A DNA stretch of 24,000 bases from Methanocorpusculum parvum (GTDB lineage Archaea; Halobacteriota; Methanomicrobia; Methanomicrobiales; Methanocorpusculaceae): NCBI RefSeq assembly GCF_002287215.1, contig NZ_LMVO01000023.1, one strand, 5' to 3'. A program made the translations under genes and the position numbers. Of the stretch, positions 16,140-21,110 are shown in pieces. Position 1 is the first letter of the stretch. Every line of letters starts with the position of its first letter. The notes beneath the pieces were generated by a model. That model saw only the letters and a program-made list of their open reading frames with translations, was not told the origin of the DNA and did no database searches.

Positions 16140-17204
16140 TCAGCACTGATCCAGCTCCCGATTCAAGAACCTGTCCTTCGTCGCGTTCGCAAACTTAACA
16201 AGCATGAGCATCACCGGCACTTCGACGAGCACCCCGACGATCGTCGCGAGAGCGACCGGACTGTTCGTTCCGTACAACGCTATCGAAACGGCGACGGCTA
16301 ATTCGAAGAAGTTCGAAGCGCCGATCATACCTGCCGGGGCTGCAATACCGTGAGGGAGATTCAGGAACCATCCCGCGCCGTATGCGATACAGAAGATCAG
16401 GATCGTCTGGATGATCAGCGGTACGGCGATCAGAAGAATGTGCAGTGGATTTTCCGTAATAACGGTTCCCTGATACGAGATGATGATCACGAGGGTAAGC
16501 AGCAGCCCGGCGATGGTGATGTTGTCGAACTTCGGGAGGAACGTTTTGGTAAAATACTCCTCTCCTTTTCTCCTGATGAGATACATCCGGGTGATCACTC
16601 CGCACAGGAGAGGGATCACCACAAACAGAACCACCGAAAGAAACAGGGTTGCCCATGGGATGCTGATCCCGCCGATCCCAAGAAGGAAGCCGACGATCGG
16701 AACGAAAGCGACGAGAATGATCAGATCATTGGTCGCGACCTGGACGACCGTATAGGCGGCGTTTCCTTTCGTCAGATGACTCCATACAAAAACCATCGCC
16801 GTACACGGAGCTGCGCCTAAAAGCACGGCGCCGATAAGATAATCCCGGGCGAGTTCAGGAGGAATGAGGGCGCTGAACACGATATAGAAGAAGAATGCCG
16901 CGATCGCAAACATCGTGAACGGTTTGATCAGCCAGTTCACGACCCAGGTAAGGACGAGCCCTTTGGGATTTTTTCCGACGTATTTCACGCTCTTGAAATC
17001 CACCTTCAGCATCATCGGGTAGATCATGACCCAGATGAGTATCGCGATCGGGATGGAAACGTTTGCATACTCGAACGTGCCCAGGAATTCCGGAACGAAC
17101 GGCACGAACCTGCCGATCAGAACGCCGGCGATCATGCAGATGATTACCCAGAGGGTAAGATATTTAGCAAAGATCCCAAGGCCTGCGGTTGTGTTTTTTG
17201 TCAT
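16140..17204 (-). CDS. acr3: arsenite efflux transporter, ACR3 family
   Basis: 354 aa, about 10 TM. The N-terminal GIFAKYLTLWVIICMIAGVLIGRFVP and the conserved GAAPCTAMVFVW block (with the essential Cys) are typical of Acr3. It starts 4 nt after the arsC stop. Confidence 0.92.
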   Translation of the reverse strand: MTKNTTAGLGIFAKYLTLWVIICMIAGVLIGRFVPFVPEFLGTFEYANVSIPIAILIWVMIYPMMLKVDFKSVKYVGKNPKGLVLTWVVNWLIKPFTMFAIAAFFFYIVFSALIPPELARDYLIGAVLLGAAPCTAMVFVWSHLTKGNAAYTVVQVATNDLIILVAFVPIVGFLLGIGGISIPWATLFLSVVLFVVIPLLCGVITRMYLIRRKGEEYFTKTFLPKFDNITIAGLLLTLVIIISYQGTVITENPLHILLIAVPLIIQTILIFCIAYGAGWFLNLPHGIAAPAGMIGASNFFELAVAVSIALYGTNSPVALATIVGVLVEVPVMLMLVKFANATKDRFLNRELDQC

Positions 17205-17208
17205 AGCA

Positions 17209-17586
17209 TCACCCTTTCAATGATTGTATGTTCGCTTCGATCTCGGCGATCGCGAGGCGATACGCCTCCTCGCCTTTTCCGACCGGGTCGTCGATGTGCC
17301 ATTCGATCCGCTGTGTTCCGGGAATGACGGGACAGGCGATCCCGCATCCCATCGTGACGATGATGTCGATCTTTGGAAGGTCGGAGATCTTTTTCGGCCG
17401 ATTCGTCGAGAGATCGATCCCGTAGATCTCCTGCATGAGGCGGACGGCGGTCGGATCAACTTTGTCGCCCGGCTCGCTCCCGGCAGAATAACAGGTGAAC
17501 CTGTCGCCGCCGAGATGCCGGCAGAGCGCTTCAGCGATCTGTGATCTGCAGGAGTTTTTGATGCAGAGAAAGGCGATCCGTTTCAT
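17209..17586 (-). CDS. arsC: arsenate reductase, LMW-PTPase (thioredoxin-coupled) type
   Basis: 125 aa from the ATG at 17586. It has the P-loop CIKNSCRS (CX5R-S) plus the downstream Cys pair in MGCGIACP. An ATGA overlap links it to the upstream permease. The longer track ORF (to 17961) is an out-of-frame overlap with the permease gene. Confidence 0.9.
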   Translation of the reverse strand: MKRIAFLCIKNSCRSQIAEALCRHLGGDRFTCYSAGSEPGDKVDPTAVRLMQEIYGIDLSTNRPKKISDLPKIDIIVTMGCGIACPVIPGTQRIEWHIDDPVGKGEEAYRLAIAEIEANIQSLKG

Positions 17587-18464
17587 ACGATCACCTGCAC
17601 GACTAATCCGGTCACCACAGCCGCAATAAATATCGTTGCGACAAACACCAGAACGAACTGTTTTTTGAATATCGCAGAAAGCATCGTGATCTCGGGAATA
17701 CTCATGCCTGCCCCGCCGATCAGAAGAGCGGCCACGGTCCCCATCCCCATCCCTTTGCTCAAGAGAGCGGCGCTGATCGGGAGGATCGTCTCCGCTCTGA
17801 TATAGAGCGGGATCCCGATGATCGCGGCGATGGGGATCGCGAACAGATTCTGTGGTCCCGCGACTGCCAAGATCCAGTCGGCAGGCAGAAATCCGTAGAT
17901 GAATGCGCCGATCGCCGCACCGAGCAGGAGGTAGGGGATCATCTGCCGGAACGTGGTCCATGCAAACCGTACGATCCTCTGGAGTTTCGTCCCGGTCTCT
18001 TCGGTCATTCCTTCGACTGCGACCGGTTTAACATATTTTTTGAACCCGAGCCGCTCAAGAGTGAGGCCGATGACGACTGCCGCCGTGAACATGAGAACAG
18101 CATACACGATGGTGATCTGCGGGCCGAAGATGACAAGCATCATCGCGATTATCACCGGGTTAAGAAGGGGGGACGCGAACAGAAAGGACATGGCGCTCGA
18201 AAAGGCCACGCCGGATTTCAGAAATCCGAGCGTTACCGGGATCGTCGAGCAGGAGCAGAACGGGGTGATCGCCCCAAACGCGGCGCCGATCACGCTTCCC
18301 CTGACCGATCCGGAATGCCCGAGGACTTTCTGCATCTTCTCTTTAGGGACATAGACATTGAGCGCCCCGACGATCAGACAGACGACGATGAAAAGCGCCG
18401 TAAGTTCCAGAGCTATGATCAGGAAATACTGACCGGCCGCGAGGAGCGTTTCTGCAAAATTCAT
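17583..18464 (-). CDS. arsP: ArsP-like permease (PF03773-type, TPFCSC motif)
   Basis: 293 aa and polytopic. GAITPFCSCSTIPV carries the vicinal-Cys motif characteristic of ArsP organoarsenical permeases. It sits inside an ars operon. Confidence 0.8.
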   Translation of the reverse strand: MNFAETLLAAGQYFLIIALELTALFIVVCLIVGALNVYVPKEKMQKVLGHSGSVRGSVIGAAFGAITPFCSCSTIPVTLGFLKSGVAFSSAMSFLFASPLLNPVIIAMMLVIFGPQITIVYAVLMFTAAVVIGLTLERLGFKKYVKPVAVEGMTEETGTKLQRIVRFAWTTFRQMIPYLLLGAAIGAFIYGFLPADWILAVAGPQNLFAIPIAAIIGIPLYIRAETILPISAALLSKGMGMGTVAALLIGGAGMSIPEITMLSAIFKKQFVLVFVATIFIAAVVTGLVVQVIV

Positions 18465-19732: not shown

Positions 19733-20802
19733 CAGATCACTCCAAGCATCCTGGATACGCCAAGGATAATACCGCTTATCACGCCGAGCGCCGCCATTCC
19801 CGCCATGACCTTGACATACGAAAAGATCTCCTTCTTGACTCCTGTTCGTGAGGTAAACGGTGTGCAGCCGGTGAAGTTCAGGGCAAGATACGAGATAACC
19901 GGGGTGATGAGAAGGAAGACCGCAGCGGCCGAAAGGACGCCGGCCCACACCGGCAGGTTCGGATATGTGCAAAAAACATACGCGAAGGGAAGCGATACGA
20001 TCATGCCAAGGATCATCCCTTTGGTCGAAAAGTCCCGTGTCGGGAGAACGGGCAGAAGCAGAGGAAAAAGCACGGTGCCTGCAAGGACTGCGGATATTGC
20101 GGCAAGCGATGCGACGGGTCCGGCAAGAAACCAAAGGGCCGCGGCGGCTGCAAGAGCCGGAAGCGCCGCGTGCATGAACTCGACAGGCGTTAAGACGAGT
20201 CGGTCCCGCAAAGAGAATTCGACACGCCGCATGGCAGGCGTCGCCGTGTGCGTTTTCAGATACTCCGGCAGATCGTCTGCCCGGACCGGGCCGTATTCGA
20301 CAGTGAACTTCGTCCTCCGCGCCACTTGCTGGCAGGAGACGCCGGGCGCTCCAAGCTGGGGTACGATGATTGTCCTGTGCGAGACGATTCCAGCAAGATC
20401 TGAGGATTCTATCCGGTGGACGAGTTCATCCGTTCCAAACGTCCCCTTCCCGGCGGCGCACCAGACATTGATCCCCTTCGTTTCCAGAACAAGTATCCAT
20501 GCATCGATCCCTGCAAGCGGGGAACGGAGGGCATCAAAACTGAGAGAATAGTTTGCCGATGCAAAAACCGGTGAGTCTGCATCCGGATCTCCGAGCCGAT
20601 ACAGGCCGGGTTCGACACGGTGCTCTGACCGGCGCCAGCCCAGCCGGGCAAGGAGATGGTCGAGCCTGTCAGAAAAGGTGATGATGTCCGTGGTCGTTTT
20701 GATCGCCGTGGGCCGGGAGCTGTTTTCAGCGCATCCGCAGGTCTGGTCTCCGGACGTCGATGAGCAGGAGCAGCAGGAGCCGGATGTTTCGGTTATTTTC
20801 AT
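19732..20802 (-). CDS. hgcA: HgcA, corrinoid methyltransferase of the mercury-methylation pair
   Basis: The signature GINVWCAAGKGTFGT was verified at codon level (reverse complement of 20446-20469 = AAT GTC TGG TGC GCC GCC GGG AAG). The C-terminal domain has about 5 TM helices. I chose the ATG at 20802, preceded by GAGGG 8 nt upstream. An alternative GTG at 20817 overlaps the upstream stop. The N-terminus is Cys-rich (SGSCCSCSSTSGDQTCGCA). Confidence 0.9.
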   Translation of the reverse strand: MKITETSGSCCSCSSTSGDQTCGCAENSSRPTAIKTTTDIITFSDRLDHLLARLGWRRSEHRVEPGLYRLGDPDADSPVFASANYSLSFDALRSPLAGIDAWILVLETKGINVWCAAGKGTFGTDELVHRIESSDLAGIVSHRTIIVPQLGAPGVSCQQVARRTKFTVEYGPVRADDLPEYLKTHTATPAMRRVEFSLRDRLVLTPVEFMHAALPALAAAAALWFLAGPVASLAAISAVLAGTVLFPLLLPVLPTRDFSTKGMILGMIVSLPFAYVFCTYPNLPVWAGVLSAAAVFLLITPVISYLALNFTGCTPFTSRTGVKKEIFSYVKVMAGMAALGVISGIILGVSRMLGVI

Positions 20803-20813
20803 GAATTGGTCCC

Positions 20814-21110
20814 TCACGACCGGTCCTGTTCGTTTAGGAGCGGGCCGAGAATATCCTTTACCATGCAGCTCAAATTGTCAGCTTTCATCAGAGCAAGACA
20901 GCAGATGCTGCCGTTTTTCTCCCAGCTGATGAGTGCGAGTTTGTCTCCTGTCCGGATGCCGGCTTTTTCCCGCACGTCTTTTGGCAGGACCATCTGCCCG
21001 CGTTCATCCACGCTGAGTACTGCTTCGATCCGGCAGCCCGTTTCACCGCCGCACCCGCAGTCTGAATCATTTTTTTGTGATGATGGATCTTCGGTATTTT
21101 TTTGGGTCAT
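20814..21110 (-). CDS. AbrB/SpoVT-type DNA-binding-fold protein with N-terminal Cys cluster
   Basis: 98 aa from the ATG at 21110. VDERGQMVLPKDVREKAGIRTGDKLALI matches the SpoVT-AbrB swapped-hairpin pattern. CGCGGETGC lies immediately N-terminal, and there are later ICC and SC residues. It is the first gene of the hgc transcription unit. The track ORF start at 21206 lies in AT-rich promoter DNA. Confidence 0.75.
   Translation of the reverse strand: MTQKNTEDPSSQKNDSDCGCGGETGCRIEAVLSVDERGQMVLPKDVREKAGIRTGDKLALISWEKNGSICCLALMKADNLSCMVKDILGPLLNEQDRS

Follow-up and report, generated by a model that had tools for sequence, protein, structure and literature searches.

We analysed 24,000 nt of the Methanocorpusculum parvum genome (contig NZ_LMVO01000023.1; this whole 24-kb stretch is referred to below as the window), in which the mercury-methylation genes hgcA and hgcB lie beside arsenic-resistance (ars) genes. 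Nine packed genes, all on the minus strand between 21110 and 16140, occur in the order hgcC, hgcA, hgcB, an arsD-like gene, arsR, a gene for a small cysteine-rich (Cys-rich) protein, a permease gene of the PF03773/ArsP family, an arsC gene of the low-molecular-weight protein tyrosine phosphatase (LMW-PTP) type and acr3. Successive genes overlap by 1, 4 or 17 nt or are spaced by 4–11 nt, and the sole long gap, 72 nt at 19381–19310, separates hgcB from the arsD-like gene. This layout, with hgcAB directly upstream of an ars operon and a single 72-bp interruption in a run of nine minus-strand genes, had been described in an earlier sequence-only reading of the locus and was confirmed by our gene calls. 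The same reading proposed that the genes form a module for methylation and export; the relationship between the two groups of genes is the subject of what follows.

The 72-bp gap (19310..19381, minus strand) is made up of about 40 nt of hgcB 3′ flank, the remainder being the ars promoter, designated P_ars. On the coding strand it runs ...TAA ACGCGATTTGGGGGTACCCTCACCCGCACC TTTTGAAAATCATTATATGCAAATATGTGAATATAATAATAT ATG, and it contains the TATA-like sequence CATTATATGC and only T3 and T4 tracts, in agreement with the earlier description of a TATA-like box and a weak T tract. P_ars (19312..19349, minus strand) is composed of a purine run, GAAAATC, resembling a transcription factor B recognition element (BRE), followed by the TATA-like ATTATATG; together they span approximately 19349–19333, with their centre some 28 nt ahead of the ATG of the arsD-like gene at 19309. 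The archaeal TATA box sits near −26/−27 and, given this spacing, a leaderless ars mRNA is predicted, probably starting at or beside the arsD-like ATG. A 32-bp imperfect palindrome, a putative ArsR operator, overlaps the TATA box. Its 16-nt arms (19312–19327 and 19328–19343) are 81% complementary, and its core, ATTATATGCAAA-TA-TGTGAATATAAT, has the 12-2-12 layout that is typical of ArsR/SmtB operators. The palindrome 26-mer occurs once in the window and was not recovered in any of 100 shuffles, and promoter and palindrome are nearly invariant in nine copies from six genomes. We take the gap to be a genuine, conserved promoter and operator of the ars unit. A structural RNA or riboswitch was considered as another use of this sequence and rejected, as the gap gave no match in Rfam and its predicted RNA fold was unremarkable (z = −0.22).

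At the other end of the ars genes a T7 tract (16085..16091, minus strand), read from the sequence about 50 nt past the acr3 stop, is a probable archaeal terminator of the unit. In the related locus L086 a T6 tract stands just after the hgcB stop, whereas in the window hgcB is followed by T3 and T4 tracts only. Because nothing longer is present, transcripts from hgcB could continue into the ars genes, and the earlier view that read-through is plausible stands; such read-through would plausibly be partial and not required for ars expression.

The upstream group begins with hgcC (20814..21110), which encodes an AbrB/SpoVT-type HgcAB-associated protein (NF040962, 127.1 bits against a cut-off of 70; PF04014 match) and ends 11 nt before the hgcA ATG, directly upstream of that gene. 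In its N-terminus (21110–21030) HgcC has a Cys cluster, CGCGGETGC, just ahead of the DNA-binding domain, as well as an internal CC, and at least three Cys directly precede the AbrB-type domain in 24 of 31 HgcC homologues; on this pattern it could be a sensor of thiophilic metals or metalloids. The corrinoid mercury-methylation protein HgcA (19732..20802; NF040863, 435.6 bits against 275) is 356 amino acids long if translated from the ATG at 20802, the start that homologues favour over the GTG at 20817. Its cap-helix motif NVWCAAGK, which holds the cobalt-ligating Cys, is invariant in 24 aligned homologues. The closest HgcA homologues are 79–95% identical and come from Methanocorpusculum, several being named Methanocorpusculum sp. 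In the window the native HgcA N-terminus reads MKITETSGSCCSCSS. This part of the protein (20802–20730) carries a CC-type motif, SGSCCSCSS...TCGC, of a kind that has been aligned with the CU selenocysteine motifs of other HgcA proteins (Haft preprint). The start of hgcB (19382..19732) overlaps the hgcA stop by 1 nt; its product is a ferredoxin with two [4Fe-4S] clusters (NF040864, 105.8 bits against 99), in whose translation we read the CX2CX2CX3CP motifs CINCRRCTQVCP and CMECGACALNCP and a C-terminal CC.

A second candidate promoter precedes hgcC (21138..21183, minus strand). It has a TATA-like ATATAAAT at 21154–21147, flanked by perfect 8-nt inverted repeats, ATTCTGAT/ATCAGAAT (21138–21145 and 21166–21173), and a second palindrome, TCAGAA-AA-TTCTGA. 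The sequence, with its inverted repeats and palindrome, is conserved in the relatives L085 and L086. These repeats differ from the ars palindrome and likely represent a putative HgcC operator distinct from it. A search of the window for a further ars palindrome near hgcC found none, and direct control of hgcC-hgcAB by ArsR in this strain was rejected for that reason. As P_ars lies downstream of hgcAB, and the window holds no second ars palindrome, arsenic would not be able to induce hgcAB through ArsR and P_ars in this strain, and the only coupling that the anatomy would possibly allow is the entry of hgcC-driven transcripts into the ars genes.

A different arrangement was found in sister strains. 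Close relatives of the locus were taken from contigs that encode the closest HgcA or permease homologues, since a profile search of genome contigs with the HgcA alignment gave, among the matches listed, no genome closer than 69% identity. Between 20746 and 12001 the window shares about 97% identity with one such contig, L081; upstream of 20746, a point inside hgcA, the two are unrelated, and the hgcC side would on this comparison be a variable region. In L081, L083 and L087 hgcC is absent. Instead, the sequence before hgcA holds, from upstream to downstream, a Sel1-repeat gene, a degenerate P_ars copy, remnants of arsD and arsR and, fused in frame to hgcA, the first 15–20 codons of the Cys-rich ars gene (L081 9881–10045, L083 9881–10045 and L087 9786–10055, to be compared with 19350–19267 and 18680–18590 in the window). 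The degenerate promoter copy carries the first ~45 nt of arsD, with both ATGs destroyed in L081 and L083. The arsR remnants in the sister strains are the last ~35 nt of the gene, and a fragment of its 5′ end is found only in L087. The degenerate copies still have their TATA box and palindrome. The resulting chimeric HgcA proteins begin MTEENTTPICGKKK... and MTEENNTSIFETKKK..., for which the Cys-rich protein offers the comparison MTEEKKTSIFGKLKK. In Cys content the chimeric proteins have lost CCSC, kept TCGC and gained ACC or NCC. The chimeric N-terminus is present in eight of the 13 closest HgcA clusters; the other five share the native form MKI.ETS..CC.C with the window, and all outgroups are native. 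We regard this as evolutionary evidence that in most of the clade's known members the ars promoter has taken over the expression of hgcAB. The idea of co-regulation between HgcAB and arsenic, put forward from the sequence alone, therefore divides by strain: the anatomy of the sister strains, with a P_ars copy before hgcA, argues for arsenic control of hgcAB, and that of this window, with P_ars downstream and a separate hgcC promoter, argues against it.

The proteins encoded downstream of P_ars agree in part with the set of ars functions first assigned to them. ArsR, Acr3 and the PF03773 permease were upheld, whereas the ArsD and ArsC assignments need qualification. The arsD-like product (18980..19309) has a thioredoxin fold (PF06953, 50.7 bits against 27) but falls short of the NCBIfam ArsD cut-off (38.9 against 90 bits); it has no Cys12/Cys13/Cys18 As(III) site, there being a single Cys in residues 1–12, and aligns to the ArsD structure 3ktb from residue 23 onward only. 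It has a C-terminal CCSCC, and no gene for a partner ArsA ATPase is present anywhere in the window. ArsR (18643..18996; NF033788, 89.8 bits against 55) is an ArsR/SmtB repressor with an ELCVCE motif in helix alpha-3. Its start at 18996 is backed by homologues, it is 99% identical in L081, and its relatives in the PDB include CzrA, CadC and SmtB. The Cys-rich gene (18461..18637) is an unannotated open reading frame of 58 codons whose product has CSCCC, CC and CCC motifs and no family match. Only 13 clusters of this protein were found among 5.8 billion proteins, every organism-named cluster being Methanocorpusculum, and it is apparently restricted to the Methanocorpusculum lineage. The LMW-PTP protein (17209..17586; PF01451, 73 bits) lies below all NCBIfam ArsC equivalog cut-offs (68–73 bits against 157–215), and its LMWPc domain, its P-loop of the form CX5R and its ars-operon context support an ArsC-like role. 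The operon ends with acr3 (16140..17204), encoding an arsenite efflux permease (TIGR00832, 369.2 bits against 282.8).

The permease (17583..18464, 293 amino acids) matches PF03773, ‘ArsP_1’ (TCDB 2.A.119), over its full length (210.9 bits against 32.3) and carries the sequence ITPFCSCS. It is far below the cut-offs of the related NCBIfam families SO_0444 (109 against 300 bits) and SaoE (99 against 325 bits), and a PDB search with it gave no match. The sequence-only reading had pointed to the TPFCSC cysteines on which the organo-As(III) exporter ArsP of Campylobacter depends. Although the motif is present, the related permease families SO_0444 (Cu/Zn) and SaoE share CSC as their best-conserved motif (Haft preprint), and it is consequently not diagnostic of an organoarsenical substrate. 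The permease gene sits between arsR and arsC, inside the putatively ArsR-controlled unit.

Comparison of neighbourhoods supports the separation of the two groups of genes. The order hgcAB and then arsD-arsR-Cys-arsP-arsC-acr3 is kept in L081 and L082 (HgcA 89% identical) and in L083, L086, L087 and L090, with the variation that in L086 a Sel1 gene and the T6 tract part hgcAB from the ars operon. In L089 an ars operon whose permease is 96% identical occurs without hgcAB within 10 kb. There (11269–11373) only some 45 codons of acr3 survive, and a second unit of ArsR, ArsP_1 (361 amino acids), Trx3 and two DGC genes, resembling the one in L087, comes next. From the existence of an ars operon without hgcAB in L089, and from the self-sufficient promoter in the gap, we infer that the ars genes are an autonomous unit. 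Permeases 45% identical to that of the window are found on Staphylococcus plasmids, several of poultry source; in pLEW6932, the one plasmid examined, an ArsR-permease unit lies beside arsD-arsA. Among 80 metagenome loci encoding relatives of the permease, ArsR is adjacent in 30, ArsC in 21 and Acr3 in eight, and hgcA stands beside the permease in none, the L090 contig of this clade being cut inside hgcB. To judge from these neighbourhoods the permease is primarily a component of ars operons, with hgcAB as a frequent but facultative neighbour.

Seen from the side of hgcA, a diverse sample of 80 species-level loci was scored for genes within 10 kb. Most archaeal loci in it have hgcC directly upstream of hgcA. 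A PF03773 gene occurs in five loci (L014, L029, L073, L076 and L077) and was not found in the other 75, and Acr3 is likewise present in five (L014, L015, L073, L076 and L080). The co-occurrence of hgcA and arsP, for which the sequence-only reading had suggested a statistical analysis, looks enriched: five PF03773 genes in 1.08 Mb of hgcA flanks correspond to a rough enrichment of P ~2e-5 to 5e-3, at a background of 0.3–1 genes per Mb that is assumed rather than measured. Other architectures also bring the two sets of genes together. In four Methanoregula/Methanomicrobiales loci (L002, L005, L006 and L010) an LMW-PTP arsC-like gene directly follows hgcB; in L006 (11343–11771), the locus whose open reading frames were read, a 4-nt overlap between the hgcB stop and the arsC-like start points to a possible hgcC-hgcA-hgcB-arsC operon. 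In the more distant relative L088 (73% identical) a large ars-like cluster of ArsP_1, Trx3, DGC, Acr3 and two LMWPc genes is placed directly upstream of hgcC-hgcA. A gene for a soluble MtrA-like corrinoid protein (PF04208, 227 amino acids; 8954–9637) is located between that cluster and hgcC-hgcA. In L085 (HgcA 82% identical; 1475–19676) hgcC-hgcAB lies amid at least five insertion sequence (IS) copies of the DDE_Tnp_1 type; no ars genes were detected in this 21-kb locus, and its homology with the window stops some 40 nt past hgcB.

The linkage of hgcAB with ars genes has been published. Genes of the ars type flank hgcAB in many metagenome-assembled genomes of putative methylators (McDaniel et al., 2020, mSystems, Fig. 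6, PMC7438021), and supplementary contig tables place PF03773 permeases and Acr3 beside hgcB (Zhang et al., 2023). As in the window, acr3, arsC and arsR are immediately beside hgcAB in these loci (McDaniel et al., 2020, PMC7438021; Gionfriddo et al., 2020; Zhang et al., 2023). The window differs from them in being archaeal with a complete arsD-like/arsR/Cys-rich/arsP/arsC/acr3 operon and in having a defined promoter and palindrome between the two units, and the ArsP-type permease is not discussed in those papers. What is new is the promoter capture and the HgcA chimera of the sister strains; a literature search on Methanocorpusculum, hgcA and arsenic found no paper describing either. It has also been proposed that archaeal methylators use an AbrB/‘TA-like’ regulator in place of arsR (Zhang et al., 2023, ISME Commun, PMC10349881). 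The archaeal hgcC loci of that study (NF040962) resemble the window in having hgcC directly upstream of hgcA. In this clade, however, hgcC-hgcAB and P_ars-hgcAB without hgcC both occur in one species-level group, a finding that would qualify the proposal.

Experimental work bears on the link in one bacterium. In Pseudodesulfovibrio mercurii ND132 hgcAB is under the control of an ArsR-like regulator (Gionfriddo et al., 2022 preprint, 10.1101/2022.10.17.512643; AEM 2023), and arsenic co-induces, together with hgcAB, ars operons of which one has ArsP- and ArsE-type genes (10.1101/2022.10.17.512643). The ArsR2-hgcAB regulon of ND132 and the present clade are alike in that hgcAB is tied to arsenic-responsive control of the ArsR type. 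In ND132, however, the gene for a dedicated four-Cys ArsR lies upstream of hgcAB and shares its transcript, with no other ars genes adjacent, whereas in the window arsR is downstream inside the ars operon and hgcC comes before hgcAB, and in the sister strains the link has arisen through promoter duplication and gene fusion. Closer in content is the arsP-arsR-arsC-acr3 operon of Campylobacter jejuni, which has no ArsM and confers protection from organoarsenicals of outside origin (Wang, 2009; Shen, 2014; Chen, 2015, reviewed in PMC6205960). It shares with the window the same four functions (ArsP-family permease, ArsR, ArsC and Acr3), ArsR control and the absence of ArsM; it differs in gene order, in the extra ArsD-like and Cys-rich genes of the window and in the archaeal promoter, and the two permeases are likened by family membership.

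We think it reasonably probable that two neighbouring units of common orientation make up the locus, each with its own promoter, namely hgcC-hgcA-hgcB and an autonomous ars operon, with possible read-through from one to the other and with regulatory capture in the sister strains. The first unit would be driven from its own TATA promoter, where the TCAGAA-type repeats are probably the operator of HgcC, and the second would be transcribed from P_ars in the gap, probably as a leaderless mRNA. ArsR would probably repress the second unit by binding the 32-bp palindrome over the TATA box, and As(III) at the ELCVC site would probably relieve this repression. ArsC would then reduce As(V) and Acr3 export As(III), while the PF03773 permease may export a second thiophilic species, most likely trivalent organoarsenicals from neighbouring organisms, and the ArsD-like and Cys-rich proteins may bind or buffer As(III). 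Some hgcCAB transcripts probably run on into the ars genes. The adjacency itself can be seen as one case of a recurrent, published hgcAB-ars association, which in the sister strains would have been turned into regulatory capture by a duplicated P_ars. Several considerations weigh against this two-unit arrangement. The promoter, the operator and the leaderless start are deduced from sequence and from general archaeal promoter rules; strong read-through would make the nine genes act as one operon; the Cys cluster of HgcC might sense As(III) or Hg(II) and couple the units in a way that is invisible in the DNA; and hgcAB-ars adjacency is seen in several independent architectures, a recurrence that suggests something beyond neighbourly coexistence.

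One alternative is that all nine genes form a single operon, transcribed mainly from the hgcC promoter, and that the gap is an internal spacer. The common strand, the lack of an oligo-T of five or more after hgcB and the absence of notable structure in the gap RNA would fit this, but the gap holds a highly conserved TATA box and palindrome, correctly spaced from the arsD-like ATG, and the same element heads the ars operon where hgcAB is missing (L089) or where a Sel1 gene and a T6 tract intervene (L086); we consider a single operon very unlikely. Another explanation is that the adjacency means nothing for function or regulation and that the two modules simply share a variable, recombination-prone island. 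A low-G+C (0.42–0.48) restriction-modification system directly upstream, the loss of the ~97% identity with L081 at 20746, beyond which the sequences are unrelated, the position of hgcAB amid IS copies with no adjacent ars genes in L085 and the shuffling of Sel1, hgcC and P_ars copies among relatives are all features that such an island could show. This is nonetheless unlikely in our view, since unrelated lineages show the association again, with the genes in several orders and orientations and with the rough enrichment (P ~2e-5 to 5e-3, assumed background) given above, the in-frame chimera with its retained TATA box and palindrome argues for selection on expression, and the hgcAB-ars link has been experimentally tested in ND132.

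More far-reaching is the possibility that HgcAB itself works in the arsenic response, by a corrinoid, SAM (S-adenosylmethionine)-independent methylation of As(III) or thiol-bound arsenic that would replace ArsM, with the ArsP-family permease exporting the trivalent methylated product, MAs(III). No ArsM is present anywhere in the 24-kb window, as had been noted earlier; hgcAB-ars adjacency recurs in differing architectures; hgcA stands behind a P_ars copy in the sister strains, with the chimera in 8/13 of the closest HgcA clusters; and the MtrA-like corrinoid gene of L088 lies between the ars-like cluster and hgcC. In the ND132 study a ΔhgcAB mutant is reported to be more sensitive to As(V), yet the Summary of that study states that no significant loss of arsenic resistance followed upon the loss of hgcAB function (Gionfriddo et al.). 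Arsenic methylation by HgcAB is, moreover, speculation, the ars operon is complete and occurs without hgcAB in L089, and hgcAB is outside P_ars control in the window. ArsP operons normally have no ArsM, and the search for ArsM covers 24 kb of the genome only. The sequence-only reading had taken ArsP without ArsM as a pointer to a methylation-export module, but the C. jejuni operon (PMC6205960) and the ArsR-permease units of Staphylococcus plasmids show it to be normal. We judge this role for HgcAB to be decidedly unlikely. A wider version, in which HgcAB has been recruited into the Methanocorpusculum arsenic stress response, with a P_ars-driven chimera in most strains, SAM-independent arsenic chemistry, export by the ArsP-family permease and mercury methylation as a side reaction, has in our estimate only a slim chance of being correct.

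The permease might, alternatively, be the missing methylmercury exporter and work together with HgcAB. Its gene is the fourth after hgcB, on the same strand, it has a CSC motif that might serve to bind soft metals, its family includes Cu/Zn exporters as well as SaoE, a proposed exporter of a metal-containing (inorganic or organometallic) substrate (Haft preprint), and PF03773 genes occur within 10 kb of hgcA in 5/80 loci. When this was first suggested it was on grounds of synteny alone, and the wider sampling does not bear it out: in 75/80 hgcAB loci the surrounding 10 kb hold no such permease, the gene is placed inside the ArsR-controlled unit between arsR and arsC, the orthologous operon exists without hgcAB in L089, relatives with 45% identity belong to bacterial ars clusters, and none of the 80 metagenome relatives has hgcA beside it. 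We therefore hold methylmercury export by this permease to be highly improbable. Methylmercury export by ArsP and arsenic methylation by HgcAB are both speculation, and the evidence does not support reading the locus as a ‘methylation-export module’.

What HgcAB natively does and how it is regulated are standing questions in mercury biogeochemistry, to which a link with arsenic has been proposed and, in one bacterium, partly tested. The window adds an archaeal case of hgcAB-ars adjacency with a fully canonical ars operon. The Methanocorpusculum strains in addition provide a natural experiment, as near-identical strains differ in what stands before hgcAB: hgcC in some and, in others, a captured ars promoter, there with a chimeric HgcA. 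The contrast between these two genotypes makes it possible to test arsenic control of mercury methylation in methanogens, the contributions of HgcC and ArsR, and the role of the Cys-rich N-terminal extension of HgcA.

The designation of HgcA as the only methyltransferase of the locus is correct for the operon but not for the neighbourhood, where the one other methyltransferase, HsdM, a SAM-dependent DNA methylase, is encoded on the plus strand at 21342–22862, just upstream of hgcC. HsdM belongs, with HsdS, to a type I restriction-modification system (21342–24000, plus strand, G+C 0.42–0.48) that lies directly upstream of hgcC. Downstream of acr3, 9426–15968 encodes a MoxR-type AAA ATPase, DUF58 and DUF4350 proteins, together with two large proteins rich in Thr and Pro (514 and 642 amino acids) that are membrane-bound or secreted. 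The MoxR/DUF58/DUF4350 cluster is kept in L081 and appears unrelated to the association of hgcAB with the ars genes.

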